This document shows, piece after piece, positions 2,771-33,396 of a stretch of DNA of 64,000 nt; position 1 is the first letter of the stretch; each line of letters starts with the position of its first letter. This DNA comes from Clostridium sp. CAG:433 (lineage in GTDB: Bacteria > Bacillota_I > Bacilli_A > RF39 > UBA660), in the NCBI GenBank assembly GCA_000433675.1, contig FR893565.1, positions 55 through 64,054 of the forward strand, read 5' to 3'. The translations under genes were made by a program, and so were the position numbers. Below the pieces are notes generated by a model. The model saw nothing but the letters and a program-made list of their open reading frames with translations. It searched no databases and was not told where the DNA came from.

Positions 2771-4696
2771 CTATATCTTATAATCATCTTCCAAAGAAAA
2801 TTCTACATTTTCTTCTATCCATTCTTTTCTAGGATCAACATTATCACCCATAAGTACTGATACTCTTTTTTCTGCAAGTGCAGCATCAGTTATCTTAACT
2901 CTAATTAATAATCTATGTTCTGGATCCATTGTTGTTTCCCATAACTGTTCAGCATCCATTTCACCAAGACCTTTGTATCTTTGTGTATCAATTGGTTTTC
3001 TTGTCTTTGTATATTCTTTTAATTCATCATCATTATAAGCATACACTACTTCATTTTTAGCAAACTCTATTTTATAAAGTGGTGGTGTTGCGATATAAAG
3101 TCTTCCTTCTTCTATAAGTGGTCTCATATATCTATAGAAGAATGTTATTAAAAGAACTTGTATATGTGATCCATCAACATCGGCATCGGTCATTATTATT
3201 ACTTTATCATAATTACAATCTTTAATATCAAAATCTGTCCCAACACCCGCACCTATTGTATAAATAAGTGTATTAATTTCTGCATTTTTATATGCTTCTT
3301 CTATTTTTGCTTTTTCTGTATTAAGTACTTTACCACGAAGAGGTAATATTGCTTGATATCTTCTATCTCTTCCTGTTTTAGCAGAACCTCCTGCTGAATC
3401 ACCCTCTACTATAAATAGCTCATTTTTAGATGAATCTTTCTTTTGTGCAGGAGCAAGTTTATCACTAATATTTTTTTCTTTTTTTGTTCCGCTTGCTTTT
3501 CTAGCAGCCTCTCTTGCCTTTCTAGCTGCTTCTCTTGCGGCTTTTCCTTTTAATGCTTTATTTAATATTGTAACTGCTACTTCTTTATTTTCTTCTAAAT
3601 AAAATCCAAACTTTTCAGAAACTACATTTTCTACTACAGTTTTAGCAAGTGGTGTACCTAGTTTACCTTTTGTTTGTCCTTCAAATTGAAGTAATGCTTC
3701 TGGAATTCTAAGTGATATAACTGCGGTTAAACCTTCCCTTACATCAGGTCCTTCTAAGTTTTTATCTTTTGCTTTTAAGTATCCATTATTTCTAGCATAT
3801 TCATTAAATACTTTTGTTAATGCTGTTTTAAATCCTACCTCGTGTGAACCACCATCACTTGTTTTAACATTATTAACAAATGAAATAATGTTTTCATTAT
3901 ATGTATCTGTATACTGCATTGCAATTTCTACTTCAATTTTATCTTTTTCTCCAGTAAAATGTAATACATTATGAAGTGTATTTTTTCCTTCATTCATATA
4001 TTCTGCGAATGATTTAATACCATTTTCATAGTGATATTTTACTTCTTTTTTATCTTCTTCATCTATTACTTCTACAGAAAGACCTTTTAGTAAGAAGGCA
4101 GATTCTTGCATTCTTTCACATATAGTTGTAAATGAGAAGTTTGTAGTAGAAAATATTTTATCATCAGGCATAAATCTAACAGTAGTACCAGTTTTATTAG
4201 TAGGACCAACCTTTTTTAAAGGACTATCTACTTCTCCACCATTTTTAAAACTGATTGTATATTCTGCTCCATCTCTTTTAGAGGTTACTATCATCCATTT
4301 TGAAAGTGCATTTACAACAGAAGCACCTACACCATGAAGTCCACCAGATACTTTATAGTTTCCTTCTTCAAACTTACCACCAGCATGAAGTATTGTATAA
4401 ATTACTTCTACTGTACTTTTACCTGATTCATGCTTTCCGACAGGAACACCACGTCCATCATCTGAAACACTAACTGAACCATCTGAATGAAGAATTATCT
4501 TAATATTTTTACCATATCCATTCATTACTTCATCTATTGAATTATCTACTATTTCCCATACAAGATGGTGAAGTCCTCTTTTATCTGTTGAACCAATATA
4601 CATACCTGGTCTTTTTCTTACTGCTTCAAGACCCTCTAGTATTTTAATTGATTTTTCATTATATTCTGCCATAAATAAAACTCCTTTACTTTTCAC
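2771..4696 (-). CDS. gyrB: DNA gyrase subunit B
   Basis: 641 aa. Has the GHKL ATPase and TOPRIM motifs (HAGGKF, EGDSAGGSAK, PLRGKVLN). A Shine-Dalgarno AAAGGAG sits 8 nt upstream of the ATG. Confidence 0.97.
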   Translation of the reverse strand: MKSKGVLFMAEYNEKSIKILEGLEAVRKRPGMYIGSTDKRGLHHLVWEIVDNSIDEVMNGYGKNIKIILHSDGSVSVSDDGRGVPVGKHESGKSTVEVIYTILHAGGKFEEGNYKVSGGLHGVGASVVNALSKWMIVTSKRDGAEYTISFKNGGEVDSPLKKVGPTNKTGTTVRFMPDDKIFSTTNFSFTTICERMQESAFLLKGLSVEVIDEEDKKEVKYHYENGIKSFAEYMNEGKNTLHNVLHFTGEKDKIEVEIAMQYTDTYNENIISFVNNVKTSDGGSHEVGFKTALTKVFNEYARNNGYLKAKDKNLEGPDVREGLTAVISLRIPEALLQFEGQTKGKLGTPLAKTVVENVVSEKFGFYLEENKEVAVTILNKALKGKAAREAARKAREAARKASGTKKEKNISDKLAPAQKKDSSKNELFIVEGDSAGGSAKTGRDRRYQAILPLRGKVLNTEKAKIEEAYKNAEINTLIYTIGAGVGTDFDIKDCNYDKVIIMTDADVDGSHIQVLLITFFYRYMRPLIEEGRLYIATPPLYKIEFAKNEVVYAYNDDELKEYTKTRKPIDTQRYKGLGEMDAEQLWETTMDPEHRLLIRVKITDAALAEKRVSVLMGDNVDPRKEWIEENVEFSLEDDYKI

Positions 4697-4758
4697 TATA
4701 AGTGATTATAACACATTTTTCCCTTTAAATTCAAGGTATTTTACATTTTGTTTATGTA

Positions 4759-4787
4759 AAGAAAAAAGGTTTATTATTAAACCTTTA
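4759..4787 (-). terminator. Rho-independent terminator ending the adhesin-locus transcription units
   Basis: The hairpin AAAGGTTTAATAATAAACCTTT is followed by a T-run on the minus strand, directly after the stop of the 4788-5396 gene. Confidence 0.6.
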
Positions 4788-5396
4788 TTATTCTTCTCCA
4801 ACATTTGTATAACTAACATTTATATTAACTTCATCAGATGAATAACTTACTATATATACATTATTGTCTTCAGTTACATATGCATATCCTGTTCCATCAT
4901 TTTTAACAGTTATACCAAATGGTTTTAAAATCTCATTAAATGTTGCTGCTTTTACTGCAAAACTATATTTTGTATATTCTTTATCATCTATTGTTTGAGA
5001 TTCTTTAACAGTATTTTTATCATCTATATTTATACCTTTTAGAAATAAATCTGTATTAGTATAATCATATTTTAATTTTACATTAACTGTTTTACCTAAA
5101 ACATCAGTTACTTCTGTTTTGTTATCTTTTATTTTAGCAACATACGATGCATTATTATCATTAAAACTTATTGTATATTCTTTATTTTCTTTATTTAAAA
5201 CAACATAGTTTTCATTAAATGAATCTGTACGTATTGATACCTTTGTTCTATAACTTTTTACTTTATCTATTTTAGTATTATTTGCAGCTGAATTTAAATC
5301 ATCTACCTTACTATTTCCAAAAAATAACAAAAGTAATATACATAGAAATAAACACGCTATTAATATAATTATTCTTTTCGTTGGTATTGTTTTCAT
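4788..5396 (-). CDS. Small secreted/membrane-anchored protein. The likely true start is the internal ATG at 5394-5396, read as MKTIPTKR.
   Basis: The track ORF begins at a TTG that overlaps the end of the upstream gene. The internal ATG is preceded by GGAGG at 6-7 nt. It has a hydrophobic N-terminal signal/anchor (IILIACLFLCILLLLFF). It is the last gene before a hairpin/T-run terminator. Confidence 0.5.
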   Translation of the reverse strand: MKTIPTKRIIILIACLFLCILLLLFFGNSKVDDLNSAANNTKIDKVKSYRTKVSIRTDSFNENYVVLNKENKEYTISFNDNNASYVAKIKDNKTEVTDVLGKTVNVKLKYDYTNTDLFLKGINIDDKNTVKESQTIDDKEYTKYSFAVKAATFNEILKPFGITVKNDGTGYAYVTEDNNVYIVSYSSDEVNINVSYTNVGEE

Positions 5397-5407
5397 TTTT
5401 ACCTCCA

Positions 5408-8014
5408 TTATTCTGTAGTACAAGTTAAACTTGTATTAGTCTTTTTATTATTTATAGTTGTATTAGTTGAAACCATGTTACATGTCAATAAACCAGAATT
5501 ATCATTTGCTACTGTAAGATTTGTGTTATTATAAAATAAATAATCATCTACAGATGTAACTGTACTTGGTATTGTAACAGATTTAATATTATTACTTTGG
5601 AAAGCATTCATACTTATTTGAGTTATTCCTTCATTTAATGTTAAATTTTGTATATTTAATGACCCAAATGAATTTCTTCCTATTTTCTTAACACTTCCAT
5701 ATATATTTATTGTTTTTTCTTTTGTTGCATCCAATCCTTTAAATCCATCTTCTAATATTTCTTGTGATTTCGAAGAATTTTTACCAATATTTAAATTTGA
5801 AACAATTAATTTATTAAACATAGTAGAATCCATACTTGCTACTCCATCACCAATATTTAATGTATTTACAACTCTATTACCTAAAATAGAATTTCCTATT
5901 GTAGTAACAGAATCTGGAATCGTTATTTCATTAATTGTATTCTTTGCTTCTGAATTTAGATAAAAAGCCATATTAGATATTTTTTGTAATCCCTCATTAA
6001 GATTAATACCTTTAAGTGGCACTCCAGTAAATGCTTTTGAACCTATCTCTGTTACACTTCCAGGAATATCTATACTAAGTAATCCTGAATTTGCAAATGC
6101 ATCCTCATCAATTAATGTTAAACTATTTGGAAGTTTTATATCTGTTAAACTTGTATCAGACTCAAAGGCATAACCATTTATACTTGTAAGTTTTTCTGGT
6201 AAAGTAACAGATGTTATTGAACTATCATTTGAAAAACCACTATAAGGGATTGAGTATACATTATTTTTTATTACAACTTTTTCTAATGATGTAAATCCAC
6301 TAAATGACGCCTGATCAATAACTTGTTCTGTTTGAAGAGTATCACTACCTATAGTCAAATCTTTTAGTGTCGATTTTATACCAGAAAATGTACTAGAAGT
6401 AATCTTAAATCCACCACCTGTATTTAATGTTGCTACTGGTGTTCCAGAGAACACATTACCAACAGTTGTTAAACTGTCTGGAAGATTAACACTCTTAAAT
6501 GCATTATTACCAAAGCAATAATTATTAAGAGTTTTTATTCCCTCATTTAATGTTAATTTACTAATATTATTTGCTATAAAAGCATTTTCGCCTATAGTTT
6601 CTACTGATCCTGGAACATTTAATGCAGAAATACTATTTCCAGCAAAAGATGTTGAACCAATACTTGTAACTGAGTCTGGCAATGCTAATGCCAAAATTGA
6701 ATTGCTTACAAATGAATTATCACCCAAAGTTTTTATTGTAGGAGAAATTATTAGTTTAGATGATATACTTTTTTGAGCAAAACCAGCAGTTGATATACCA
6801 GTAACTGTCTTACCATCTATTTTTGTTGGAAGAGCCCATACATTATCTTTATATGATGATGGTGCTGTAGACTTAAATCCACTTATGTTTACTGTTCCAT
6901 CTGAGTTTTCAGTTGTAGAATATAAACTTTCATCTATATAATCTTTACATATTTTATTATATTCTTCTTCACTTATTGTTCCATAATCATATATATGTTC
7001 ATTACAAACATATTTAATAGTTCCATCATCTATATAATCTTTAATATTTTCAACAGTTGTTAAATCAACTCTAATTACAGGAGTTATGTAAAATGGTGTT
7101 CCAGATTCACTAAATCCAAATGTTGATTGCATTGAATTTTGCATTAGATAATAGAATGTATTTTCACCCATTATCAAACATGGCATATATGTTGACGATG
7201 GACAAATATTTAATCCATTTAACAATGCATTGTTATTTTCACTAAGTTCAACTGTGTTCATTATTCTTGCTTTTAAACCTGTAAAATCAAACGTTGAATT
7301 TATATTATATTTTGCTTCTGGTTTTGGAATTTTATCACTCCAAGTCTCAGTTATTGTATTAATATAATTTACTAAGGCTCCATCAGCTGACCCATTATTA
7401 TTCTCTAGTGCCTTACCATAATCATATACTCCAGTATTTTTGTATACTAATTCATATTTACCTTCATCTGTATTTCCATGAAGTACAAGCCACGCATAAC
7501 ATGTATCTGATTCATTATCACACAATTTATAATTAATTGGATCAAAATATACTACTTCATTTTCTTCGTATTTAGGAAGCTTACTTGGATCTATAGTACT
7601 TGTTGTTCCACATTTATCACTTTTTTTAGCACTCCATTTACCATCATTATAAATAACATTATATTCATTAATACATAGATTTGCACCTACTACTCTTTTG
7701 TCATTTATTGTAACTGATCCACTTTGTGGTTTATTTTTTACAGTTACTGAACTTAATTCATTTACACTGTAAACAGATTGACCTGACTTAAAAAAAGATT
7801 TATATTTGCTTGAATCTAAATCAGAGAAAGTCATATTTTGATTTACCGCTCTTGCATATAACTGTCCTGATTCGATAGATGTTTGTCTCTTACTATTTTC
7901 AATAACATCTAATACTTTTGGTACTGCTACTACGGCAATAACTGAAATTATTATAATAACCGCAAGTAATTCAATTAATGTAAACCCTTTATTTTTATCA
8001 TCTAACTTTTTCAT
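5408..8014 (-). CDS. Type IV pilin-like (prepilin-type N-terminal cleavage/methylation domain) protein fused to a BspA-type leucine-rich-repeat domain. Putative minor pilin/adhesin.
   Basis: The N-terminus MKKLDDKNKG|FTLIELLAVIIIISVIAVVAVP is a class III signal peptide with Gly at -1, Phe at +1 and Glu at +5. The rest carries about 20 BspA-like LRR units with a repeated '..I..IG..AF....L..V.LP.S...IG' pattern. AGGAGG sits 7 nt upstream. The gene has its own TTGACT-17-TATACT promoter. Confidence 0.8.
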   Translation of the reverse strand: MKKLDDKNKGFTLIELLAVIIIISVIAVVAVPKVLDVIENSKRQTSIESGQLYARAVNQNMTFSDLDSSKYKSFFKSGQSVYSVNELSSVTVKNKPQSGSVTINDKRVVGANLCINEYNVIYNDGKWSAKKSDKCGTTSTIDPSKLPKYEENEVVYFDPINYKLCDNESDTCYAWLVLHGNTDEGKYELVYKNTGVYDYGKALENNNGSADGALVNYINTITETWSDKIPKPEAKYNINSTFDFTGLKARIMNTVELSENNNALLNGLNICPSSTYMPCLIMGENTFYYLMQNSMQSTFGFSESGTPFYITPVIRVDLTTVENIKDYIDDGTIKYVCNEHIYDYGTISEEEYNKICKDYIDESLYSTTENSDGTVNISGFKSTAPSSYKDNVWALPTKIDGKTVTGISTAGFAQKSISSKLIISPTIKTLGDNSFVSNSILALALPDSVTSIGSTSFAGNSISALNVPGSVETIGENAFIANNISKLTLNEGIKTLNNYCFGNNAFKSVNLPDSLTTVGNVFSGTPVATLNTGGGFKITSSTFSGIKSTLKDLTIGSDTLQTEQVIDQASFSGFTSLEKVVIKNNVYSIPYSGFSNDSSITSVTLPEKLTSINGYAFESDTSLTDIKLPNSLTLIDEDAFANSGLLSIDIPGSVTEIGSKAFTGVPLKGINLNEGLQKISNMAFYLNSEAKNTINEITIPDSVTTIGNSILGNRVVNTLNIGDGVASMDSTMFNKLIVSNLNIGKNSSKSQEILEDGFKGLDATKEKTINIYGSVKKIGRNSFGSLNIQNLTLNEGITQISMNAFQSNNIKSVTIPSTVTSVDDYLFYNNTNLTVANDNSGLLTCNMVSTNTTINNKKTNTSLTCTTE

Positions 8015-8039
8015 AAATTCCTCCTAGTATTACATTATA

Positions 8040-8068
8040 AGTATAAAATACAATCAAAAATCAGTCAA
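8040..8068 (-). promoter_or_regulatory. SigA-type promoter (TTGACT-17-TATACT) for the pilin-LRR gene
   Basis: It sits between the terminator of the giant adhesin gene and the AGGAGG SD of the pilin-LRR gene. Confidence 0.55.
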
Positions 8069-8071
8069 TAT

Positions 8072-8097
8072 AAAAAGAGTTCAAATGAACTCTTTTT
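8072..8097 (-). terminator. Rho-independent terminator after the giant adhesin gene
   Basis: The hairpin AAAAAGAGTTCA-ttt-TGAACTCTTTTT is followed by a T-run and abuts the TAA stop. Confidence 0.65.
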
Positions 8098-11000
8098 ACA
8101 CTTTTCTTGATAGTTTTCTTTGCTCTTTAAATGCGAAGTATAAACCAAGAATTATTGATACCATCGCAACTATATAAATTATATATTTTATTTGATTTAC
8201 TCCTGTTTGGATTGTTATTATTAAATATGCTAATGCTGATTCTATTACTTTTCTCTTTTCATTAGTATTTTCTAAGATATTTCCATTTACTTTTCCATCT
8301 TCTGTTATTGTAAATTCTATATCTTTATTATCACTACTTACTAGTTTATAACTTCCTTCTTCAAGATTATTTAAATATATTCTTCCTTTTATTGAAGTCA
8401 TTTCACTATTATTTGATCCCGTAATATATCTACCTACTTCTTCGTCCTTTTCCATATTTAATAATTTATATTCATTATCTACTTTCTTATACAAATTATA
8501 TGTATTTTCTGTTGATAACTTACTTCCATCACTCATTTCATATACAATTATATTTTTTCCATTTTGATTTATATTTAATACTTTTTCTATTGTATTTATT
8601 ATACTTGCACCTATACTCTCTGATGGAGCTGAATCAATTATTGTAAGTGTTCCATTCTTAACAAAACTATAATCTCCATATGTTATTGTATGTCCATTTA
8701 AATATAGATTTATAATTTTATTTTCTGGTACTATTATATCTTCAGTTAATTCTATATCTTTATATATTACTATATTTGATTCTGTATTATCTTTAACTGA
8801 ATTAATTGCTGTTTGTAAACTAGTAAAGTTAATTCCATTTACCATTGCTACTCTTTCATCATCAGCAATTACAACTAAATAACCAACTTTTGTATTGTTT
8901 GTTGTATCATCGCTTATAGAAAGTTTATAACCCGGTTCTATTTCTGTTATTGTTCCAGAAACAGGAGCAGTACCACCAATTAATTTACCATCATATAAAT
9001 TAAATGTTCCTGCATTATTTACAGCATATTTTGATCCTTGAATTACTGGACTTGTAATACTTATTACTCCACCTTTTTCACCAATATTCAATACACCTTC
9101 ATCATTATATATGCACTCTGTACTACCTGATGTATAGTTACCACTAGTTATATTTAAAGTACCTTTATATCTATTATTAAATACCCTATTTGAACTATTA
9201 ACACTATTTAACGTTGAATTAGAAACTGTTAGTGTTGAATTATTACTTATATATGCAGTACCTGATAGAGTGTCTATAATACTACTACCACTATTATTAT
9301 TTAATACAAATCCTTTTGCAGTAGCATTTTGAATTTTCAACTGACCAGTATTAATTATTTTGGATAATATACCTCCAGTTATATTTGTAATTTTATTATT
9401 TGTTAATCCTGATACTGTTCCACCAGTCACATTTACTGTTCCTGAATTTTCAAAGGAATTCATAATACCAGAATTTTGAGTAAATATTCCACTAGAAGAG
9501 TTTGTACCTGATATTGTTCCTCCATTATTATTAATATTACCATTGTTTGTTACTGCAAAGTCACCACCAGTTATTTCCATAGTTCCATTATTTTCTATTG
9601 GAGACTCATAATCTATCTTGCCTGATGACACATTATCAATCATAGTTACTGAACCATTATTTATGAATGGTATATTAGATGTATAAATATTTTTACCATT
9701 TATATCAAACGTCATATTCATATTTTCATTAACAATTCCACCATCAATTTTATTTGTATAAATCCATACATTATCAAGTAATTGCAATGTATCATTATTT
9801 GATATCTCATTAACTGCAGACCTTATATTATTATATTCTTTATTACTTGTAGTATTTTTTATAACAGGTGTATCAACTAAATAATAGCCATCCGTTGATA
9901 CCTTAACATTATAGCCATCTTCAACTTCTATTGGTTTTGAAATATTTTTCTTTACAATTCCATCGTAGAAATATAGATTTAAATATGTAGCAGTAATTCT
10001 ACCACTAATCATTGGATCTGTTGTTGAAACATTAGAGTCCCCTTTTATACCTAAAGTTACATTTATATCGCCCTGATTTTTCATAGGTGAAATAGAACCT
10101 GTAACTGTTCCAGATTTAATAATTACTGTTGGAGTCGATGTATAGGAATACATATCATAAATACTTGTTATTTTTCCTGATTCCATTGTAACTCTACTTA
10201 CACCTATAATATTTTTTACAGTTGATGAAGTTATTGAAACTCCTGATTGATATCCTTTTATATTTCCATCTATTTCAGTATTATTTAGAGTAATATTATC
10301 ATAATCCGAAAGAATAACGGTATCTACTGCTCCACTATAATTTCCACCTTCAATTGATAATTTTAATCCTCCACTATATGATGAAAATTTTGGACTAAAC
10401 TTACCACAATTTACACTACTGTAATAAGAATTACAGTTTAATATATTGTACTTTTGATTTTTCATTTCAACATTCTTTAAATTAATTGTATTCCCAACAT
10501 GTTTACTTTGCATAAATATACCATTATAAGTATTTATTGTTGCACCATCTACTTTTACTGTTGTTTCTGGATTAATTACGGTTAAGAATTTTCCAAATTT
10601 AAAATTGAAAATTCCTCCTATTATTTCTACACTCTTTGCGTCATATGTTCGAATTAATCCAAATTCAGTTGCATCACTATCAGTTGTAGTCTGATTGCTA
10701 AATCTAGGGTCTCTAGTAATATTTGTATTATTTAAAATAAGCTGTCCAGTTAAAATATCAAGAGAATGTAATTCATCATCAGCCATATCATAATATTTAG
10801 ATGTTATATTTGAATTACTAATATTTAAAATTGGGCTATTAGAACCATAATTTTTAATAATACATCCATAAGACGATGATGTTATTGTTACACCTGTTAT
10901 ATTCATATTTGATTCATTTTTTATTAAACCAACATATTCAATAGTACCTTTATTTAGTGTGAAATCTTTAGTATTAGTTATTGTTGATGATGATGGTATT

Positions 11001-14000
11001 GTAATATTATTTGCTGTAAATGTAGAACTATTTGTTATTGGTCCAGTAATATTATCATTTTCAGAAACAAGTATACCATTATTAGTTAATGCATCACTAC
11101 TTCTAATTTGTGAATTTGAAATATTTATAGTACCATTATTTGTTATTGACTTACCACTAGTGTTTATTTTTATAGAATCAACTGTTGCTGTTCCTGAGTT
11201 AAATATTACACTATTTGATGATGTTTTACCATAAGAATTGTATAAAATTGATTCTTTAATATTTAATTCACCATTTACTTTATTACTTATCATTTCACAT
11301 TCAACTGTACTTTCAATATATATTTTATTCAATTTTAATATTCCAGAATTATCGATAACATTACTTCCACCAGTATTATATATACCGCCATCATCAATTG
11401 ATGGTGTTGTTTCATTATAATTACTATTTGTTATTGTTAACTCTCCTAAATTTGAAAGGAATAAAGCATTATTTTCATTTATTTTATAACCATTTACATC
11501 TATAGTAACATTTAATCCTTCTGGAACTACAGTTGCTTCAGCACTAGCAAGCGTTGAAATTTCACTTATTACTTGTATAGTATTACCATCTGTTGCTTCA
11601 TCTATAGCCTTTTGTAAAGTACTATATTCTTTTTCAGTATCAACGTTTCTTGCAACCATTGTTTCTTTTTCATCTTTATGTAAATATTTTGAATTATCTA
11701 CTTGAATTACAGTATATTCATCTTCAGTGTCATACACATTTCCATCAATTGGTGTTGTACCTGTGAATATTCCATCGTAGAACTTAAATACCGTTTTTGA
11801 ACCAGTTTTTATACCCGCAGTTGTACCTGTTATTTCAGGATTAGAAATTGATACATTTAAACTTCCATCATCGTTAGTATCACCTTTAATACCGAAAGTT
11901 ATAGTATTTTCACTAGTATTTCGTATTGCAATTCCATCTGCAGATGTATATGTTCCACTAATTATATTAACATCACCAGTTGTAGTAGAATAAATTGCGC
12001 TATTTCCTGAACTACTAACATTTGAACCAGTTACTGTTATATTTGCCGTTCCCGTTAATTGGAATGGTACACAAGCAGCAACATATTTACCACCATTTAC
12101 TATAACATTTCCTTTTTTAAAGTTTAAAATACCATATGTTGATGTTACCATTGATGTTGATGTTATATTATTATTATTAAATATTGCACTATTACCATTA
12201 TTAGTAAAGACATTATAATTATTAGTACTAAATACATTATTAGTAAACTCAATAGAATTATCATTTGTTCCAATATATTTTAATGAAGAATTTAAGTCAT
12301 GAATTTTTGCAATTCCTGAATTATAAATCAAATTATTTGCTTCACTATAATTACCACCAGAAACATCAACATTTCCATTTGCACTTGTTTTTATGGCATA
12401 TGATGTTTTAAAAGTTCCTCCTGTAATATTAGTTATTCCATCAGAATAAACTGCAATATACCCTACTTCAAAATTTCCATCATTTATGTTTGTTGTTGCA
12501 TCGCTAGAAGTATATATAATATTATCTGTATCATTACTAATATTTCTTATAGAGAATGTACCACCAGAAACATTTAGTTTAGAATTATTAGTTATAAATC
12601 TCATTGGCTTACTTGTTTTATAATTACCACTGAAATTATGAACAATTGAACCAGAATTGAAATTCATATTACCATTGTTTATAAATGTATTTATATTGCT
12701 ATAATAACATTTTAAATTAATTCCATTATTTTCCAATGTTCCATTATTTTCTAATAAACTTTCTCCATAAACTCTACTAATTTCTGAAGAAGAATCAGAC
12801 GTTTTCAATTTTAATGTTCCATTATTTACAATCAATGGATTTTGTTTTTTATAATATACTATTTTTTTGTCATCTAAATTTAATTCTATATTTTTATTAG
12901 AATCAACTGTAGAATTCAAAACCGTATATATATCTTTTATTATTTTTATTTTTGTTTGATTGTTATCGCCATTAACGTTTTCTATTGCTTCACTTAATGT
13001 TTTATATTTAGTTTCTCCAATTTGAGCAACATAATCTTTATCAATTATTTTATTTAATGATATTTTATTTATGTCATTAGTATTTGAATAGTCAACATCA
13101 TAACCATTAGGAACTAAATTTATTGAAGTATTTATTACTTCTTCATTATCACTTATAAGAGTTCCATCATAATAATTTACAATTGACTCATTAATAGTTT
13201 CAATACTATAGTCAATAGTGTCAATAATAATATTATCACTACTAACAGTTTCATCATCACTTCCAAGATTAATAGTTGAACCTTTTCCATAAATTCCTTT
13301 TTTGTAATTTAAAATTTTAAATCCATCATTTAAATTTAGTGTTCCTTCATTTGTTACTGCTGTAAGATTACTTTTTGTTGATGTCATGGTAGTATTTTCC
13401 GCTGTAAGTATACCTAAATTTTGAATTGTTCCATCAGCAAATTGTGTATTATTTATATTTGCATTTCCTCTATTTGATAAAATACCATTAATTTTAGAAT
13501 TATTATATTTAAACTCTCCATCAGCGTAATTAGTTATATTCATTGCAGTTACATTTTCTTCTATAGTCATATTTTTAGAGTTTTCAATTTTTGTATTAAC
13601 CATATCCATATTTTTCATTGTAACTGTACTATTTGAGTTTTCAAACAAGGACATTGATTGAATAATTACATTATCCATATTTAATGTACATGAATTGAAA
13701 TCAATACTATTTATAGTTGAATCTTTTATATCTATAGTACTACTACCATTATATATATCTCCTAGTGTAGAATTATTAATTTCTACTTTTTTATTTGTAT
13801 TTGAGCTAACGGTTCCTTCAATATAACTATTATTAATCTTAATATCCTTTTTACCCATAGAATACGAATTTTTTATTCCATTATCTATCGCTTGTGAACC
13901 GTATATATTTGAATTATTTATTTCAAGCATTCCTTTTTCACTTAATTTAAACGCATAAGAGCTAGTTGATGATGGTACAATAATTGATGAATTATTTATA

Positions 14001-17000
14001 GTTAACTTATAAATAGATGAATCTATTATTGCAGATGAATAATTATAATCCCTTATGATAACATTGTCTAATGTTAAGTCTGAATTACTTTGATTATATA
14101 TAGAACCACCAACAAATGTATAACCTTTAATATTATTTTTCTTAATACTTTTTGTATATAATGAATAATTACTTGTTGATGCAATTGTTCCAGAACCTTC
14201 TACAATTTCACCTGTTTCTCTGTTATTAACACCATAAGCATATGCTCGAACATATCCTCCATTACCTATGCTCAATTTTCCATAATTATCTACGCCTGAA
14301 GATGAAGTTGAATTATCCTTTGTATAAACTAATGTTTTTTCAACACTCAAATATGCACCTTCATTATTTTTTATAGCACTACTTGCAGAACTATAAATTG
14401 ATGAAACATAATCACTATCAGATAAAGTTGGTATATCAATTTTCGAATTAATTTCGTTTATCCTTAAACTTATTTGTGTTCTTGGTAGACATATTTTTAA
14501 ATAATATTCTCCGATTTTCGTTGGTTTTAACTCGAAATTAAATGTTTGAGCTGCTGTTGACGTTCTAACAAATCTTTTTTGAACATCAAAACTAGATTCA
14601 TTTACATTTTTATCACTACTCAAACCAATAGTTACATAACCAAATGAACTAGATGCTTTAGGGAGTGTTATCGTTCCTACTATAGATTTATATTTACTGT
14701 CAAAATTTATTTTATAATTTGAAAAAGTTGAATTCATATATGTTTCTCTAGAACTAATACTTATATTTCCATAACTAAATGAATTATAACTACACTTTTT
14801 CGTACTTGTTGAGTTGTTGCAAAAGATTGAAAAATCAGATGTATCATATTTTACAGTTTTAAAATCAGATATTTGACTATTAAAATCTTCTATACGATTA
14901 GCATAAGTTGGAACATATTTAGAATCTGTTACTTTTAAACTACCGTTATTTGTAATAACTGGATCTGAAGATGTTGTTGTCAAAGTGTGACCATTTAAAT
15001 CTAACTCAACACTTTTAGTACTTTCAATCTGCAATGAATTACTTATATTTAAATCCTTTATCAATTGAACAGTATCAACTTCTTTATTTAATGTAGTAGT
15101 AACACCATCATATCTTATGTAATCATTAGTCTTATCATCGTCATTTAAATATGTAATACCAATTTCAAAACTATCTGCATTCGTGTCTGATACTGGAAGA
15201 TTTCCATCTTTTTCATAAGCAAATTGTAAATAATATATATTACCCTTTTCCAAAACTTTTGAAATTGTACCAGAAGAAGACTTATTACTTGTAACAAGTA
15301 AACTATCTTTCGAATAACTTGAGCTATTATTATAATTTATCTTTGTTAAATCATTTTTCATTAAATTAATGAATCCCATAGAATAGTTATCATTTTTAGA
15401 AATATTATAATTTATATCTATTGGCATATCACTAGTAGCATTTGTTAAATCTATTTTTATATATGATATTGCTGTTGTATTTGCAATTCCTTTATTTTCA
15501 TTAGTAAATACACCTTTTTCGCTATTATAAGTAAATCCATATGCTGGTTCATTTTTTACATAAATATAATCTAATGTCTCATCCTCATCATTTATTTCTG
15601 TTTCTTCTTCTTTAACATCTTCTTTTATTAAATCAGGAACAAGTCCATAATATAATGTTGTATTTTCTTCTTCACCAAGTTCTATATTAAATGGATCATT
15701 TTGTGTACCACTACCAGATGTTATTTTTACTTTAGGATTTAAATAAACTGTTGGTTTTAAAACATAATAATTGTTTGCTGCTGGCATAGTATATAGAGCT
15801 GTTATCATTGCTGCCGTGAATGATGGGAATGATGCACCATAAATTGGACTCATTGTCATAAGTGGTGATGAAAGGTTTACACCCATCCAGTTATTATTTG
15901 ATGAACAATCACCATATACATTAGAATTTGAACTCATACACTTGCTTCTGTCATTTCCTGAACCATCGCCTGAAGCCATTATATAATCGCTAGGATATGG
16001 AAGACCAACCTTACCAAACCATGTTGTTGTTCTATCAACTAAATCAGTTGTTGGATAACTCGAGGAATCAAAATCTGTTTTTCCGTTTTTATCCCCTCTT
16101 TCATATGTATACATCTGATATGGAGTTAAATTTTGAGTATCATTTGAAATTGCTCCTGTATTCCATAAAACTGAATCAATCATTGATTTTGCACTATCAT
16201 TCAAGCCAATAGATGTAAAATCACAGAATGTAGTTGAAAGGCCTCCAGAATTCAAACATTTTCCACTTTTCTTATTCCAATACAAACTATTATTAGTAAC
16301 AATTTCAGAACCTGAATCGTGAAGAACTTTATTATTTTCATAACCTGGATTTAATAACTTCATTACAGCTGCTTGTGACCATTCATTAACTCCATATCCG
16401 TTATTTACTTTTGAACTACTTGAATCCCAAACAATATTGCTTCCAATAGAATCATTTCTAACTAGCTTTACTCTTTTTGCATAATTTCCATCAGCATCGG
16501 TTGTATTAAATATTCCTATTACTCTCCATAACTCGTTATTAAATTTAACATAATTTTTAGTATCTTTACCAATAAACCTAAAATTTGAATCTGCTGTTCC
16601 ATCATCTGTTACATATGGAAGATTAGACTTATTACTATCATCAATTGTTCCTTTTAAATGAGGTAATGTACCAATATTTATAATATTATCAGTCACAGGA
16701 ATAAGTGAAATGTTTTTTATATATGGATGTGGTTTACCTTCGGGATTGTAACTTGCAAAATGCACATAATACACGCTTCCTTTTGGAAGAACATATTTAT
16801 AATCACGGAAATCATAATAATTACTATTACCATTTATGTAATAGCTGTAATTTGAAAAAAATGACAACAATGTATTATTCATATTATTAATAATAAGTTC
16901 TTTTTTAGAATCTTTATTATTACTTGTTATATATATACTTGAATAACTATTCAATGCTAAATTAAAATCTATTATTTTATCCGTTTTTGACTCTGTTAAA

Positions 17001-20000
17001 TCAATCTTAACATATGAATCAAATTTTTCACCATAAGGTGCATTACTTGAAATTGAATATCGATCATATGAAGAATCATAACTATCAATTCCATAATAAT
17101 TTGTTCTTAAACTTGTAGATAAATCTATATTTTCTTTATCTCCTATACCTACCACATCTATTGAATTAATTATAAATTGATCTTTTGAATTATTATATGT
17201 ATAATCTGGCTCTGAATAATTATCATATCCTTTAAAATAATAAAATTGAAGATAATATTTTTTACCTTTTTTCAATGTTTGTGAATAATTGTATGGGCCA
17301 ATATTATGTTGTGAACTACTATTGACATACATATAACCTAATGCACTATAAGAAGCACTTGATAATTTAGAATTGTCCTCATTTATTACTATATTTCCGT
17401 AATTCCCATAATATAATGTATCTAGCGATGCATTAATTATTACTTCTTTATCTTCTGTTTCGTTTGTTAAATCAACTTCTATATATGAAAATGCTGTGGT
17501 ATTTTGCATATATTGATTATTAGATTTTAATGTTCTTGTTGTTTTGTCATATTCAAAACCGTATGAACTCGATATAGTTTCAAATTCAGTATTTTCATCC
17601 ACATCATATTTATTTATTTTTTGGAAAAACATGTCATAAATTGTAACCATATTTGTTTCATTTTGAGAATATGTAGTATAATCCAATCTTATATAATATT
17701 TCTTACCTTTAGTTAAATAAAATTTATAATTATCTCTCTTAGTAGTATCGTCTGTAGTTTTCGTTTGAGATATATTATTACCATAAGCATCATTTTCTCT
17801 TACAATTACTTCAAAGTTTCCATAATAAGTATCAATAGCATCACTTGAAATAAATAAATACTGATCATTCTCATATCCTGTTAAATCTATTACAGTATAT
17901 GCTTTTACACTTTTACCTGGCTCTGATGATAGTGTATTTGTTTCACTATCGTAAGTAAATCCAGTATCATCAACATTACTAAATCCTTGCATTAGATTAG
18001 TATTTGTTGTCGTAGGTTCAGACAATGTTCCGCTATTTGTATCTTCAACAGCTTTATCTATTTTAGTATAATAAACACCAGTTCTAACTATTCTTGCTTC
18101 TGCATCTTCTAGTATCTTTAATGTTGCGACTTGTCTATTATCACTTGTTACTACACTTGCATTATATAGATATGGTTTATCATTTACTTCACCTTCTATT
18201 GCAATGTTTCCTGCAATCATTCCATCGTAGAAATTAAATCTTCCTTTTGTATTTTTATCTATATATTCATTTACAACACCAAATGTTCCACCATTTATAT
18301 ATGGTTTTGTTGTTGATACTACTAATTCATCTTCTAATTCACCTAGTGTTAGTACACCTGTTGTTTCATTTTTTAATGCTACTCCTGCATTATTTACTAT
18401 ACTTCCTGCTTCTTCAGCATTATCTTTTATTATTAAATTTCCACCATTATTTATTGTATATGTATCTTTTACTCCTGTTATTGTTTTTCCATTTATATTA
18501 AGAGTTATATCTTGTCCTTCTAATACTTCTACACTTTCTTTTGTATCTGTTACCATTTCTATTGTGCATTGGTTACTTGGACATGCTTTTATCGCTCTTT
18601 CAAGTGAGCTAAAGTTTTCATATAAATTTTCATCTTCAAATAGTTTATTTTCTCTTCCAATTATTCTTGCAACTATTTTTTCTTCAGTTTTAACTGTTAT
18701 TTCTTTTGCTTCACTTAAGTTTCCAGCAACATCTTCTGCTATTACTTTTATTTTATAATCATTTCCTGATATTAAATCATTAAATGTATATGTACTATTT
18801 TTTTCTTCATTATAGTTCTCAGTATATACTATTGTTGTTTCTAATAAATCATCTTTATATATATGTATTTGTTTCATTCCTGATTCATTATCTATTGTAC
18901 TTACATTTATATCAAAACTTGTTCCTGATACATTTGTTTCATTTAATGAATTTATTATTGGTTTTATTTTATCTATATTTGTTATGTCATGTGATTCTGT
19001 TATACTATCTACATTTTCTTTTACCGATTTTGCTACTACTGTGCAGTTATAATCTATATCAAATGGTCCTGTATATTCTTTATATTCTCCTGTGTCTATT
19101 TTATATAGATATTTATAATCTTCATGACTTGATGTTATTGTTACTGTTACTTTATTGTTTGTCCACTCTGTTGGCACATGGCTTATACTTGGTTTTTCTA
19201 TTTCTTCATATGAACTACGCAATATCATATTATCTATTACTGGTAAATTAAAGTCATATTCTTTATCATTTAATGTCCATGTTTTAAACAAATTATGTTC
19301 TTTTGTTGGATTCTCACTTGGTTTAGTTGCCTTTAATCCATATTTAACTTGTTCTTGTTTAAATAAGTTATCTCCATCCATGAACTTAACTGTATATTCA
19401 TTTGCTTCATATACAGAATAAAGTGTTGTATCTTTTGTTATTTTTGTACTAAAGTCATAGGCTGTACCATTTTCTCCTAGTGACCAATATTTAAATGTGT
19501 GTCCAACTTTACTTGGATCTGTTTCTGGTTTTATAGCGGCTTTATTATATTCTATAGTTTCATCTTCTATATATTTAGTGCCATTATCTATAAATGATAC
19601 TTTATAATTATTTACACTATATACTGAGTAAAGTGTTATATCTTTTGTTATTTTTGCATTAAAGTCATAGGCTACACCATTTTCTTCTAGTGACCAATAT
19701 TTAAATGTATGTCCTTCCTTACTTGGATCTGTTTCTGGTTTTAATGCGACTTTATTATATTCTATAGTTTCATCTTCTATATATTTAGTGCCATTATCTA
19801 CAAATGATACTTTATAACTATTTACACTATATACTGAGTAAAGTGTTGTATCTTTTGTTATCTTTGTATTAAAGTCATATGCTACACCATTTTCATCTAG
19901 TGACCAATATTTAAATGTATAACCTTCTTTTATTGGATCAGTCTCTGGTTTTACTGCAATTTTATTATATTTAACTTTTTGTGTATCACCATATGCATTA

Positions 20001-22520: not shown

Positions 22521-22555
22521 TTAAAAAAATCAAGATTTTTTAAACCTTGATTTTA
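22521..22555 (-). terminator. Rho-independent terminator after the paralog B gene, upstream of the giant adhesin gene
   Basis: The hairpin AAATCAAG-(11 nt)-CTTGATTT is followed by a T-run on the minus strand. Confidence 0.55.
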
Positions 22556-28056: not shown

Positions 28057-28959
28057 CTATTTTTCAATCTCTTTATTCTTATATGTGTAAACATAAGCCA
28101 TATCATTATTTACGCTTGGATTACTCTTATATTCAATCTTATCAAACAAAGTGTCTTTTTCTTCATCAGAATAAAAACACTGAATCTTTCCTCTTTCTGA
28201 TAACATATTTCTAAATGATTCTAATATCAATTTTTCTCTTTTTTTAATTTCTTTTTCACTCATGCTTGTTATATCATGTGATAAATATATAAAATCATAT
28301 GGTTCTTTTACTTTACTTTCTATTTTTTCATCTTTTGAATAAATGAATTTTACATCTTTTTCTTTTATATTTTTTGCAAGTTCACCATAACCTTTACTTA
28401 ATGCGCTTCTAACTAAAGTTGATAATTCTTCAAAACTATATCTATCAGGTTCTATTAATTTTGATCTCCTAATTCTTTTGCCTATATAAATTTTATATAA
28501 TTCGTCAAAAAAATATCTTGTTTTATCATCTAAATTATCTCTTATAGATTTATATACATCGTAATTAAATGTATAACTATATCTTCCATGCGTATTCATA
28601 AGAAAACTATAGTAATCTTTAAATCTTAAATCTAAAGCAGCAATTTTTAACTTCATAAAGTATTCATCAAATCTATTATCACTAAATGCTGTAACATTCC
28701 CACCGTAAGATATTATATCAAATATTTCATCTGAAGAATTGATTTTACATATTGTATTTTTATCTTTTAACTTTATTTTTTTAAATGATTTTAATGATTG
28801 ATCTGAAAATAATTTTACTGGTCTATATCCAGTTTTTTCATAAACATTTCCTTCTATAAAATCACGAGCTACTACTATATCTTTTTCTACTTGCATAAAA
28901 AAACTCTCCTTTTTTTGGTTTCGGAGAGTTATTATATCATAAAAATTAATATTATTCAC
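28057..28959 (-). CDS. Hypothetical cytoplasmic protein
   Basis: 300-aa ORF with no TM segment. Overlaps the upstream gene by 8 nt, which suggests translational coupling. I recognise no diagnostic motif. Confidence 0.45.
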   Translation of the reverse strand: MNNINFYDIITLRNQKKESFFMQVEKDIVVARDFIEGNVYEKTGYRPVKLFSDQSLKSFKKIKLKDKNTICKINSSDEIFDIISYGGNVTAFSDNRFDEYFMKLKIAALDLRFKDYYSFLMNTHGRYSYTFNYDVYKSIRDNLDDKTRYFFDELYKIYIGKRIRRSKLIEPDRYSFEELSTLVRSALSKGYGELAKNIKEKDVKFIYSKDEKIESKVKEPYDFIYLSHDITSMSEKEIKKREKLILESFRNMLSERGKIQCFYSDEEKDTLFDKIEYKSNPSVNNDMAYVYTYKNKEIEK

Positions 28960-30364: not shown

Positions 30365-30451
30365 AAACGTTTACCTTCAGTAATATTATAGCATATTTCA
30401 AAAAATAAATGTAAACTAAAAAGCCATAAATGTAAAATTTATGACTATTAA

Positions 30452-31264
30452 TTAATATAAAAGACTTAAAAGTGTATTAAAATCAACTCTTGTTAAAAAT
30501 AATATTAAAGCAGAAATAGCTAAATATGGACCAAATGGAAGCATATGTTCATCTTTTCTATAAACATTTATTATTGCAACTGGAAGCGCTAAAAATGATG
30601 CTAAAAAGACTACTACAATTGATAATCTCCATCCTAAAACAAAACCAATTAGAGCCATCATTTTTATGTCTCCGCCGCCCATCGAATCTTTTTTAAACAA
30701 AGCATTTCCTATCATTCTTATTAAATACATTATTAGGAACATTGCCATTCCATCCATAAGTATAAATAAAAGTTCATATCCAAAACTTAATAAACTAGTT
30801 ATTACTTCAGTTTTATATAATATTATTAATTTTATTATTATAAGTACTATCGAAAAAAATATATTAACTTCATCTGGTATTATCATATATTTTATATCAC
30901 TAATCATTATTATTACCATTGCTGATATAAATGTTAATGAATAAATAATATTAATTATTTCTGGATATACATCTTTATATGCTAAATAACCAAGTACAAA
31001 AAGCACACCAGTTAGAAGTTCAAACATAGGATAAAAAAGTGATATCTTTTCATGACAATGTTTACATCTTCCTTTTTGAAATATATAAGATAGTATTGGT
31101 ATTAATTCTAGTGCACCAAGTTTATGATTACAATTAGTACAATGTGATGGTGGATATACAATAGACATATCATTTGGAAGTCTATAACCTACTACATTAA
31201 AAAATGAGCCAAAGCAAATACCAATTATAAATATCATTATACTGTAAATTATTATTTCCATCAT
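30452..31264 (-). CDS. Prepilin peptidase (A24 family; PilD/ComC-like)
   Basis: Polytopic membrane protein. An N-terminal CxxC...CxxC zinc-ribbon motif pair is present (CTNC ... CKHC). A conserved Asp-containing loop (SMGGGDIKMMA) is present. It lies immediately downstream of the platform-protein gene. Confidence 0.85.
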   Translation of the reverse strand: MMEIIIYSIMIFIIGICFGSFFNVVGYRLPNDMSIVYPPSHCTNCNHKLGALELIPILSYIFQKGRCKHCHEKISLFYPMFELLTGVLFVLGYLAYKDVYPEIINIIYSLTFISAMVIIMISDIKYMIIPDEVNIFFSIVLIIIKLIILYKTEVITSLLSFGYELLFILMDGMAMFLIMYLIRMIGNALFKKDSMGGGDIKMMALIGFVLGWRLSIVVVFLASFLALPVAIINVYRKDEHMLPFGPYLAISALILFLTRVDFNTLLSLLY

Positions 31265-31273
31265 GTTCTCCTT

Positions 31274-32980
31274 CTATAATATGTTTTCATACATACTAAA
31301 CATTGGTATTATTACTGCAAGTAATATTCCACCTACTACAACTGCTAAGAATATAATCATAAGTGGCTCAATTAAAGCCTTAATTCTTGTTATTGCATTA
31401 ATATGTTCTTCTGCATAATAATCTGCTACCTTCTCCATCATTAAACCTAATTGTCCTGTTTTTTCACCCGTAACAATCATTTGGTATGCTATATTTGGAA
31501 AAGCCCAATTATCTTTAAACGCTACTGATATATTTTCACCCTTTGAAAGAGCTATAACAGCATCATATATTATCGATTTATATATTTCATTATCTGTTAT
31601 TCTACCTAATATATCCATACTATCTGTTATAAATATATTATTATTAATAAGAGTCGCAAATGTTTTAGAAAACATTGTCATTTCGTTATAAATAATTATA
31701 TTACCTACGACAGGTATATGCATAATCATATATTGAATATTTGATTTAAATGAAACACTTTTTTTAAATAATATAACAAATGTAGATACTATTAAAAGTA
31801 TTACAAGTATTATTATTAAATACTTTGATCTAACAAAATTACTTATATTTATTATTGCTTTTGTAATACCTGGGAGTTCCGCACCTAGGTTTTTATAAAT
31901 ATTTACAAATTGTGGAACTACTGAAACAATAATATAAATAATTATTATAATTGCAAATATAAATACAAATAATGGATACATCATTGCATTTACCATTTCT
32001 TTTCTTGATTTCTCAACTGATTTATAATATTCTGCCTGTTCGTCTAATACTTCTGGTAAATCACCTGTCATTTCTGCAGCTTTTACCATATTTATTAAAA
32101 GTTTTGGAAATATTACACCCATTCTAATCATTGCTTCAGATAAAGTTGCTCCCATAGATAGTTCATATACAACTGATTTCCATATTGTTTTATCTGATTC
32201 TGTTTTAGATTGTGTTGATAATATTTTTATTGAATCTACTATTGGAATACCTGCTTTTAAATAAGTTGATAATTGTGTTAAATAAAATACTAATATAGAC
32301 TTTTTCATTGGTCTATTAAGTGCAATATCTGTATTAAACATATTGGCTTTAGCAACTGCTTTTATTTCATATACTTTATAACCTTCTGATAATAAATATG
32401 AATGAACATCAAGTTTTGAGTATCCTAAAAATGATCCTTTTTCTATTTTACCTTCTGGATTTAATGCAGAATACTTAAATATTAACTTTTCTGTACTTCT
32501 TTTAGCATCTTCTGAATTAATATCAAGCGCAACAATTTGTTTTCTTCTATCTTGTCTTTTATTTTTTTCAAATATATCTTTTTCTTTTATTTTTTGAAGT
32601 AAACTTTTTTTGTTTTGTTTTTGAAGTTCTTTTTGTCTTAACTTTTCTTTTCTCATTTCTTCTTTTGCTTTTTTATGCTCTTCTTTTGTTATAACAAATT
32701 CTTTAGCACTATCACTAGATTCATCATTTTTAAATTTTAATGTTTCATTTTTTATTTCTTCATCTCTAACATTTTTACTTAAATCTATTTTTTCTTTTGT
32801 GTTATTAGTATCTTTTTTCATAAGTTTATTAACTCCTAAATTTATACTTTTTACTATATTAAAAGGTAGTAAAATAATAAATAAAAATATTTTACCGATA
32901 TAACCAAAAATTGAAGTTTTATTATCTTTATCCATAATACCACCTATTATTCTATTTTCTATACTAGTATTATAACACAC
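31274..32980 (-). CDS. Type II secretion system F-family platform protein (PilC/ComGB-like). The likely true start is the ATG at 32933-32935.
   Basis: Two GspF repeats are present, with the characteristic 'kaamtYP' motif and three TM helices in the C-terminal two-thirds. The PilC-like cytoplasmic N-domain starts around FKYSALNPEGK. There is an unusual extra N-terminal region of about 150 aa with one TM helix and a Lys/Glu-rich coiled-coil-like segment. GGTGG sits 4-5 nt upstream of the second Met. A TATAAT box lies inside the track-predicted first codons. Confidence 0.8.
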   Translation of the reverse strand: MCYNTSIENRIIGGIMDKDNKTSIFGYIGKIFLFIILLPFNIVKSINLGVNKLMKKDTNNTKEKIDLSKNVRDEEIKNETLKFKNDESSDSAKEFVITKEEHKKAKEEMRKEKLRQKELQKQNKKSLLQKIKEKDIFEKNKRQDRRKQIVALDINSEDAKRSTEKLIFKYSALNPEGKIEKGSFLGYSKLDVHSYLLSEGYKVYEIKAVAKANMFNTDIALNRPMKKSILVFYLTQLSTYLKAGIPIVDSIKILSTQSKTESDKTIWKSVVYELSMGATLSEAMIRMGVIFPKLLINMVKAAEMTGDLPEVLDEQAEYYKSVEKSRKEMVNAMMYPLFVFIFAIIIIIYIIVSVVPQFVNIYKNLGAELPGITKAIINISNFVRSKYLIIILVILLIVSTFVILFKKSVSFKSNIQYMIMHIPVVGNIIIYNEMTMFSKTFATLINNNIFITDSMDILGRITDNEIYKSIIYDAVIALSKGENISVAFKDNWAFPNIAYQMIVTGEKTGQLGLMMEKVADYYAEEHINAITRIKALIEPLMIIFLAVVVGGILLAVIIPMFSMYENIL

Positions 32981-33044
32981 CAGAAAAATTTTTTAAACTA
33001 TTTTTTCCTCATTCATATAATATACAAGAAGGAGGTATACTTTT

Positions 33045-33368
33045 ATGTTTAATCCAAATCTACTTTATATGCCTGGAAGAAGTATTTTACCTATTGCTAG
33101 AAAAACAATAAATTGGGCTGGACTACTTAGTAATACACAAAAAACACTTAATATTGTTAATCAAGCAATACCTATTGTTTATCAAGTAAAGCCTATGATT
33201 AATAATGCTAAAACAATGTTTAAGATTGCTAGTGAATTAACTAAGTCAAATACAAATGAAAACTCAAATGTTCAAAACAATGCAAATGAAAGTAACAGTA
33301 CCCAAAGTAATAGTTATAGTGTAAATAATAGTTCATCAAATAATGATGGTCCTTCCTTCTTCATTTAA
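33045..33368 (+). CDS. Small hypothetical protein, possibly YqfQ-like, with an Asn/Ser-rich tail
   Basis: AAGGAGG sits 9 nt upstream of the ATG. It is the only plus-strand gene in this neighbourhood. It is followed by a bidirectional hairpin terminator. Confidence 0.5.
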   Translation: MFNPNLLYMPGRSILPIARKTINWAGLLSNTQKTLNIVNQAIPIVYQVKPMINNAKTMFKIASELTKSNTNENSNVQNNANESNSTQSNSYSVNNSSSNNDGPSFFI

Positions 33369-33396
33369 AAAAAGACAAAATTAATTGTCTTTTTCT
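33367..33396. terminator. Bidirectional hairpin terminator between the small plus-strand gene and trmK
   Basis: AAAAAGACAA-ttaa-TTGTCTTTTT is flanked by an A-run and a T-run, and lies between convergent genes. Confidence 0.6.

Follow-up and report, generated by a model that had tools for sequence, protein, structure and literature searches.

We analysed a 64,000-nt stretch of the Clostridium sp. CAG:433 genome (contig FR893565.1; hereafter 'the window', whose coordinates are used unless a contig is named) around an open reading frame (ORF) of 868 amino acids (aa) at 5408..8014, on the minus strand, which joins a prepilin N-terminus to BspA-type leucine-rich repeats (LRRs). A first reading of the letters, referred to below as the original prediction, had proposed this gene to encode a modular minor pilin. 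Open reading frame analysis, profile searches and structural models divide the protein into three modules: a pilin module (residues 11–135), a middle domain (residues ~136–332) and a capped LRR solenoid (residues ~333–868). As read from the sequence, translation starts at an ATG (8014-8012) with a Shine-Dalgarno element, GGAGG (8020..8024, minus), 5 nt ahead of it. The gene lies between that of a giant adhesin and parE, and a small membrane-protein gene follows it closely.

Members of the type IV pilin superfamily are recognized by their class III signal, a short charged leader ending in Gly at position −1, followed by ~21 hydrophobic residues with Phe or Met at +1 and Glu at +5. Judged by its sequence, the protein under study begins with such a signal: the 10-residue charged leader MKKLDDKNKG (7985..8014, minus), with a cut predicted from profiles and alignments after Gly10, is followed by FTLIELLAVIIIISVIAVVAVP, placing Gly at −1, Phe at +1, Glu at +5 and Pro at +22. 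Both curated models of this region exceeded their thresholds, namely PF07963 N_methyl (31.2 bits; Pfam gathering cut-off 21.2) and TIGR02532 (29.3 bits; NCBIfam cut-off 16.3). Residues K9–I20 (KGFTLIELLAVI) are unchanged in all seven pilin modules of an alignment (A2) in which overall identity drops to 29%, and because of this invariance we do not regard the motif match as fortuitous. Across 102 relatives of the module, Gly−1, Phe+1 and Pro+22 were invariant or nearly so, Pro+22 (Pro32 of the precursor) showing no exception, and N_methyl was present in 101. The class III signal with Glu at +5 named in the original prediction is thereby borne out by both profiles and by the invariant motif. Strict and relaxed six-frame scans returned no second prepilin motif in the 64 kb. 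Against the competence and type II secretion system (T2SS) equivalogs, no match reached its cut-off (ComGC 29.4 versus 75, GspG 26.8 versus 88.85, ComGE 21.7 versus 49), and these sub-threshold matches were limited to the N-terminal helix.

The fold that defines a pilin is an α1 helix of ~50 residues with a helix-breaking Pro22, packed on an antiparallel β-sheet. For the pilin module (7610..7984, minus), AlphaFold2 (AF2) predicted a 51-residue α1 helix (residues 13–63) and a β-sheet of four to six strands (residues 74–131) with a predicted local distance difference test (pLDDT) value of ~77, in the full protein as well as in the module alone; the full-length model is numbered one below the protein, Met1 being absent from the input alignment. 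Two cysteines, Cys114 and Cys135, are kept in 18 of 18 pilin-type sequences of a second alignment (A1). A profile search of the PDB with the module matched type IV pilins or pseudopilins exclusively (21 of 21, over up to 68 residues), the best being the major pilin PilE1 of Streptococcus sanguinis (E = 1.2e-9 over 68 residues). We place the module boundary at residues ~135–145, within the linker GTTSTIDPSKLP, since there are homologues that lack the middle domain and a paralogue that exchanges only residues 1–140.

The module is not confined to this protein. Its family comprises 531 representative clusters at E ≤ 1e-10, the match always being N-terminal, and ~85% of the top 150 clusters exceed 200 aa. 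Cargoes carried by the 102 relatives include ALK_LTK_GRD, LRR_5, DUF6273, fn3, Laminin_G_3, Big_2, Flg_new and GH20, so the pilin module is a general carrier of many cargo domains. Examples on related contigs (L004 7306-13261 and 16198-18320; L005 7415-11515; L009 14485-17703) encode further large N_methyl proteins, such as N_methyl with Flg_new (826 aa) and N_methyl with ALK_LTK_GRD (1072 aa), as well as two tandem pilin-LRR proteins (869 and 1086 aa) directly after trmK. Relatives also encode three pilins of 187-236 aa whose first 55 residues are 43–54% identical to those studied here; these are candidate major pilins.

The original prediction had described the remainder of the protein as an 800-aa LRR domain. 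Together with its caps, the LRR part in fact measures ~535 aa (residues 333–868; 5411..7018, minus), being preceded by the pilin module and by a linker plus middle domain (residues 136–332; 7019..7609, minus). The predicted number of ~20 BspA-like units did agree with the model, and the structure prediction proposed as a check returned an LRR solenoid. AF2 gave pLDDT values above 90 over residues 340–867, and the modelled solenoid consists of an N-cap (Cys337–Cys356), ~20 BspA-type rungs spaced ~22 aa apart and a C-cap (Cys845–Cys865). PF13306 LRR_5 matched in four stretches (E = 2e-64), and Foldseek retrieved solved BspA-type structures on top (4fs7, 4gt6, PcpA 4cp6 and TpLRR 6mlx; E 5e-12 to 5e-5). 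By sequence and by model, this part of the protein is thus assigned to the BspA-type LRRs, that is, tandem repeats of ~22–23 residues that match the LRR_5 model and form a right-handed β-solenoid. With N_methyl and LRR_5 in a single ORF, the protein falls within the modular-pilin definition of Raynaud et al. 2021. The middle domain was modelled with pLDDT values of 25-60 and holds two conserved cysteine pairs (Cys165–Cys172 and Cys271–Cys279); it is missing entirely from shorter homologues (P0108-P0111), and searches returned no Pfam family, no PDB sequence relative and no similarity to the giant neighbouring protein.

Eleven nucleotides past the stop codon of the pilin-LRR gene, and with a GGAGG of its own, lies a gene for a 202-aa protein in which an N-terminal transmembrane segment precedes an extracytoplasmic domain (4788..5396, minus), for which Pfam, NCBIfam and PDB held no family match. 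A terminator-like hairpin follows it at 4758..4786 (minus; −7.9 kcal/mol, z −2.5), built from a perfect 9-bp stem, a 4-nt loop and a T run; a consensus scan missed this element because its stem holds only two G-C pairs. On the upstream side, the giant adhesin gene ends (stop codon 8098-8096) in an intrinsic-terminator-like hairpin at 8067..8102 (minus), in which a 16-pair stem is followed by a T run and whose folding energy (−17.9 kcal/mol, z −5.7) was equalled by 0 of 200 shuffled sequences. This element is the terminator of the giant gene and parts it from the pilin-LRR operon. Taken together, the sequence features indicate that the pilin-LRR gene and the 202-aa membrane-protein gene form a two-gene transcription unit.

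This arrangement revises what had been said about the transcription of the gene. It had been credited with terminators of its own; the upstream hairpin belongs to its neighbour, and the downstream one comes only after the 202-aa gene, so the pilin-LRR gene has none. The strong promoter claimed for it is plausible in that the 81-nt intergenic region contains TTGACT-17-TATACT (8040..8068, minus), a match to consensus; at 25% G+C, however, such sites occur in this region at chance frequency (33 found versus 35.2 expected in shuffled sequence). The physical link to the giant adhesin holds as far as the two genes are adjacent and both strain-variable, but it amounts to adjacency, with a strong terminator in between. 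The order giant gene, pilin-LRR gene, 202-aa gene, parE and parC was kept in every related contig examined.

The giant gene itself (8096-22447, minus) encodes 4783 aa with ten Flg_new repeats, CarboxypepD_reg/SdrD_B domains and a C-terminal transmembrane segment. Its product ranges from 4781 to 5375 aa among strains, and ~650 alignable residues of the C-terminal 1000 aa are 53% identical to the copy on a conspecific contig (L006). Adjoining it on the upstream side are two ORFs of 620 and 628 aa (22553-24415 and 24415-26301, minus), each with an N-terminal transmembrane segment and with similar ends (FGLYLAK and FGLYLAN); neither matched Pfam or NCBIfam.

The protein belongs to an uncultured Bacilli lineage. 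Its exact sequence was found in 154 index blocks of public assemblies, human gut metagenomes included, and the named homologues of its neighbouring genes belong to 'Bacilli bacterium' metagenome-assembled genomes (MAGs). In a scan of genome contigs, the protein alone gave no match, and the alignment as query gave one distant MAG locus (L005). One scaffold (ENA ERZ28594908 scaffold_140; L028 and L029) carries the exact gene twice, at 4402-9008 and 53478-58084, ~49 kb apart, which may reflect true duplication or faulty assembly.

Comparing strains revealed that the conservation of the protein differs sharply between its parts. On the conspecific contig L006, the flanks share ~95% DNA identity with the window, ParE, ParC and the 202-aa partner are 99.5%, 99.1% and 94% identical, and the pilin-LRR protein is only 65% identical. 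This divergence is unevenly distributed: identity amounts to 85–98% over residues 1-240, 38–55% over 241-320, 72–85% over 321-480, 38–50% over 481-840 and 86% in the C-cap, making residues 481–840 of the LRR region hypervariable among conspecific strains. The orthologues in A1 (63–78% identical overall) follow suit, with 90–96% identity in the pilin module and 50–51% in the LRR region; in P0007 and P0060, the module is 80–82% identical. Within the module, the globular head (residues 36–135) retains 91–96% identity in alleles whose LRR regions are at 50–51%, a constraint that fits docking into conserved partners and exceeds the need of a membrane anchor. Repeat number varies as well, some alleles of 703 aa being short of ~165 residues.

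The same cargo also occurs behind a different N-terminus. In a paralogue (P0062, 772 aa; P0005, 937 aa), the middle domain and LRR region are joined to a quite different membrane-spanning module of ~208 aa (MHKMKVKNLENIILSVLAICLIGITIAYATLSQNL...), recognizable by the motif LIGIT(I/V)AYATLSQNL…SAPGDKITY.FDVINEGD. A conspecific contig, L008, carries pilin and non-pilin versions in tandem, each with its own ~200-aa partner gene, the non-pilin copy lying at 3850-6168; the partner is thus retained beside pilin-carried and non-pilin-carried LRR genes alike. Residues 161–560 of the window allele are 70–98% identical to this non-pilin paralogue; against the pilin alleles on L006 and L008, identity is only 38–92%. 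Such a mosaic points to exchange between two cassettes and suggests, as far as sequence comparison goes, that pilin and non-pilin versions have recombined. The non-pilin carrier additionally heads the variable gene that separates pilD from the ATPase gene in conspecific strains, and one more gene with a different cargo (L038 11286-12635 and 19800-21236). NCBIfam and PDB gave no match to it, and its similarity to Peptidase_M73 (camelysin/TasA) stayed below threshold (19.9 bits; cut-off 22.5); we did not adopt a TasA/camelysin identity on this basis and kept it as a lead.

If the protein is a pilin, its host should possess the enzymes that process and assemble one. The window contains an intact gene for a prepilin peptidase of the PilD/ComC type (30452..31264, minus), the presumed processing enzyme, with A24_N_bact and Peptidase_A24 domains, the motifs CTNC and CKHC in the N-terminal zinc-binding region, IPD129 and GGGDIK196-201. 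It lies 22.4 kb from the pilin-LRR gene, which confirms the peptidase that the original prediction had placed at about that distance, and is 96% identical to the copy on the conspecific contig L038. Next to it is the gene for a PilC/GspF-type platform protein (T2SSF; 31274..32980, minus; 553 aa with the start at 32935 chosen by gene callers). It matched GspF/PilC models full length with 280 and 245 bits, versus 146 bits for ComGB. It carries an N-terminal extension of ~165 aa, comprising one transmembrane segment and a K/E-rich low-complexity region, beyond the ~400 positions of the NCBIfam GspF/PilC models; the extension is kept within the lineage (553-621 aa), and platform proteins of relatives reach 908 aa.

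An assembly ATPase and a major pilin, which the original prediction proposed to search for and whose absence from the genome it had named as grounds for rejecting its own proposal, are both missing from the window; part of the answer came from conspecific strains. Contigs L038, L040, L042 and L044 share 96.8–97.0% DNA identity with the window over 7.1 kb (30448-37565) and, given this identity, represent its species. Their locus reads pilC, pilD, a variable gene, a T2SSE ATPase gene (420 aa), a gene for a 160-aa pilin-like protein (QG|YFLVE) and one for a 147-aa N_methyl pilin, so that an ATPase and two small pilin-like genes do accompany pilC-pilD in these strains. Homology to the window ends at 30448, four bases past the pilD stop codon, and the window strain must therefore have been rearranged there. 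Beyond this breakpoint, the window encodes a protein with a VanY domain (28952-30364) and contains a 300-aa ORF that carries no annotation (28057-28959).

In relatives at ~76% DNA identity, yqfQ, pilC and pilD are followed by a divergently oriented gene for a T2SSE ATPase and by a pair of small pilin-like genes. The ATPase of relatives is of the GspE/PilB type and falls below every equivalog cut-off (ComGA 272 bits versus 300). In clade contigs L017, L039 and L043, the ATPase block also occurs apart from pilCD. Neither YhcG paralogue identity (77–84%) nor sample lists or cluster members gave a clear link between the detached ATPase locus L017 and the window strain. It was contigs L038-L047 that settled the machinery question at the level of the species, which, from its gene content, possesses the central components of a type IV filament machine. 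YhcG/DUF1016 nuclease-like genes occur in tandem arrays of variable copy number: one full and one truncated copy are present in the window (56442-58235, minus), and related contigs (L017, L038-L040) have two to five copies beside the ATPase/pilin block. The window further encodes ComEC and ComEA (58248-60819, minus) and the type VII secretion system (T7SS) ATPase EssC (45490-50103, minus; TIGR03928, 991 bits, above cut-off). By gene content, the organism thus has T7SS and DNA-uptake components besides its type IV filament genes.

Taking these observations together, we consider the protein to be probably, though by no means certainly, a modular type IV minor pilin presenting an LRR adhesin. Sequence, profile and comparative data support this central claim of the original prediction; what did not stand is its picture of a cargo consisting of LRRs alone on a stand-alone gene. 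Under this interpretation, the prepilin would enter the membrane via its hydrophobic N-terminal helix, and the PilD-type peptidase (30452-31264) would cut after Gly10 and probably N-methylate Phe11. The pilin module (residues 11–135) would then dock into the type IV filament that the PilC-type platform (31274-32980) assembles together with a GspE/PilB-type ATPase. Because the cargo, with its disulphide-capped solenoid, is bulky (~730 aa), the subunit would most likely sit at or near the filament tip, where the LRR surface may bind a strain-specific gut ligand; the co-transcribed 202-aa membrane protein may act as a partner dedicated to this cargo. What we infer rather than observe comprises cleavage and methylation, assembly into the filament, placement at its tip, and adhesion.

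Several findings weigh against a role as a minor pilin. Here and in the relatives examined, the gene never lies inside a pilus operon: it is located between the adhesin gene and parE in the window and beside suf/rnf, tig/lon or trmK in relatives. Neither a Walker A/T2SSE motif scan nor tblastn with the ATPases of relatives detected an assembly ATPase within the 64-kb window, and no other prepilin or major pilin was found there. As the rearrangement falls exactly 3′ of pilD, the ATPase of the window strain itself is deduced rather than seen. The small pilins next to the ATPase of conspecific strains and relatives are weakly ComGE/GF-like, that is, minor, and we identified no candidate major pilin in the species. 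Finally, since the cargo is also found on a non-pilin N-terminal module, it does not as such require incorporation into a filament.

Much of this would suit a surface adhesin that is processed by PilD and does not polymerise, with the prepilin N-terminus acting as a membrane-retained anchor (or a short stub) and the LRR region extending through the wall. The original prediction had allowed for this option as display on the membrane surface. Such a design would account for a gene outside any pilus operon in all relatives examined and for a window devoid of ATPase and major pilin. The presence of the same cargo and its 202-aa partner on another membrane-spanning module suggests that what matters for the cargo is to be tethered, and relatives join N_methyl termini to other large surface proteins (826-1086 aa). 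A plain anchor would, however, have no use for a 100-residue head held at 91–96% identity while other regions drop to ~50%, nor for the conserved Pro+22 and the Cys114–Cys135 pair, and the species does encode a filament ATPase and accessory pilins. We therefore rate a non-polymerising anchor as a serious but clearly less probable alternative.

An unlikely option is that the protein belongs to a competence (Com-type) or T2SS-like filament, its LRR region serving functions linked to DNA uptake or cell-cell contact, or being released. ComEC and ComEA are encoded in the window, the ATPase of relatives comes close to the ComGA cut-off and is adjoined by the weakly ComGE/ComGF-like small pilins, and the N-terminus under study has the sub-threshold ComGC and GspG matches described above. 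Yet the platform protein fits GspF/PilC far better than ComGB, every equivalog match stayed below its cut-off, and LRR_5 surface proteins are in general adhesins. We consider it very improbable that the N-terminus is a plain Sec signal peptide, or a signal anchor left uncleaved, whose prepilin likeness is incidental and to which PilD is irrelevant: its charged n-region and hydrophobic core do have the generic signal layout and prepilins all enter the membrane by the Sec/SRP route, but two independent curated models score it above their cut-offs, KGFTLIELLAVI is invariant in seven A2 modules, N_methyl recurs in nearly all module relatives, an intact PilD is encoded in the window, and the Glu within the hydrophobic core together with a Pro right after the sole AxA-like site (VAV|P) would disfavour signal peptidase I.

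For a minor pilin bearing an adhesive cargo, the closest known counterparts are PilB and PilC of S. sanguinis, modular pilins with a von Willebrand factor A (vWA) and a lectin module, respectively, which form a tip complex with PilA (PMC8179133, PMC9934059). Like these, the protein described here combines a class III signal, a small pilin module, a short linker and a bulky binding module in a monoderm host, with a presumed role as an adhesin; the nearest PDB relative of its pilin module, PilE1, comes from the same species. It differs from PilB and PilC in its cargo, a middle domain of ~190 aa plus ~20 BspA-type LRRs in a protein of 868 aa, and in the setting of its gene, away from the pilus locus and coupled to a dedicated gene for the 202-aa membrane protein. 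Unlike theirs, moreover, its cargo is hypervariable among strains of one species and is exchanged by recombination with a non-pilin paralogue. The original prediction had contrasted the protein with pilins of about 15 kDa, an outdated yardstick, as modular pilins are known to run to several hundred residues (PMC8179133), the longest singled out by Raynaud et al. 2021 measuring 860 residues (PMC8179133).

The architecture has precedents, too. Dataset S1 of Raynaud et al. 2021 lists the combination IPR012902-IPR026906, the latter being the BspA-type LRR entry, in 18 proteins with one LRR_5 and six with two; it ranks seventh in frequency among modular pilin architectures, with 'no clear function' (PMC8179133). 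These entries share the two signatures with the present protein in the same order, as a database count without anatomy, context, machinery or population data. The pilin plus LRR architecture is hence already catalogued, and the present protein adds another member rather than a new kind. In the literature searched, we found no functional study of a pilin-LRR fusion.

BACOVA_04585 (4fs7), the Faecalibacterium prausnitzii protein 4gt6, pneumococcal PcpA (4cp6) and Treponema pallidum TpLRR (6mlx) share the solenoid fold and repeat type, the LRR region being only 14–18% identical to these solved BspA-type structures. Unlike the present protein, none of the N_methyl-free LRR_5 homologues retrieved here has a prepilin N-terminus. 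Bulky minor pilins whose extra domains force them into the tip position are known from the T2SS (GspK), from the type IVb pilus (T4bP) of enterotoxigenic Escherichia coli (ETEC; CofB) and as ComZ (PMC8179133). The extra domain of GspK is an insertion within the pilin fold; the cargo described here is instead appended C-terminally. Both GspK, the K subunit, and PilA lack Glu5 (PMC9934059), a residue that the present protein, unlike them, keeps at +5.

Modular pilins are the current explanation for the many functions of simple type IV filaments. To our knowledge, the only ones studied so far are those of S. sanguinis with a vWA or a lectin module. With LRRs as cargo, the concept would come to include the repeat family most used in adhesins by gut and oral bacteria. 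What sets this locus above the routine is its hypervariable cargo on an invariant handle, the mosaicism with a non-pilin paralogue, the dedicated partner gene and the off-locus position. Pilin-type genes can sit far from pilus loci, and operon-based annotation will therefore miss them. The near-invariant handle and a cargo that is ~50% identical make a concrete, testable example of a pilus adhesin diversifying at the level of strains, which bears on colonisation specificity and on immune or phage pressure. More speculatively, and with considerable doubt on our part, the locus could be a 'swappable-handle' adhesin cassette, in which the middle domain, LRR region and partner ride, within one species, on either a pilin or an AYATLSQNL carrier—the latter possibly a TasA/camelysin-like fibre subunit—and LRRs are exchanged by recombination, yielding strain-specific binding on a constant filament interface. 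If true, a prevalent commensal of the human gut would thereby possess a system that diversifies the adhesins at its pilus tips.

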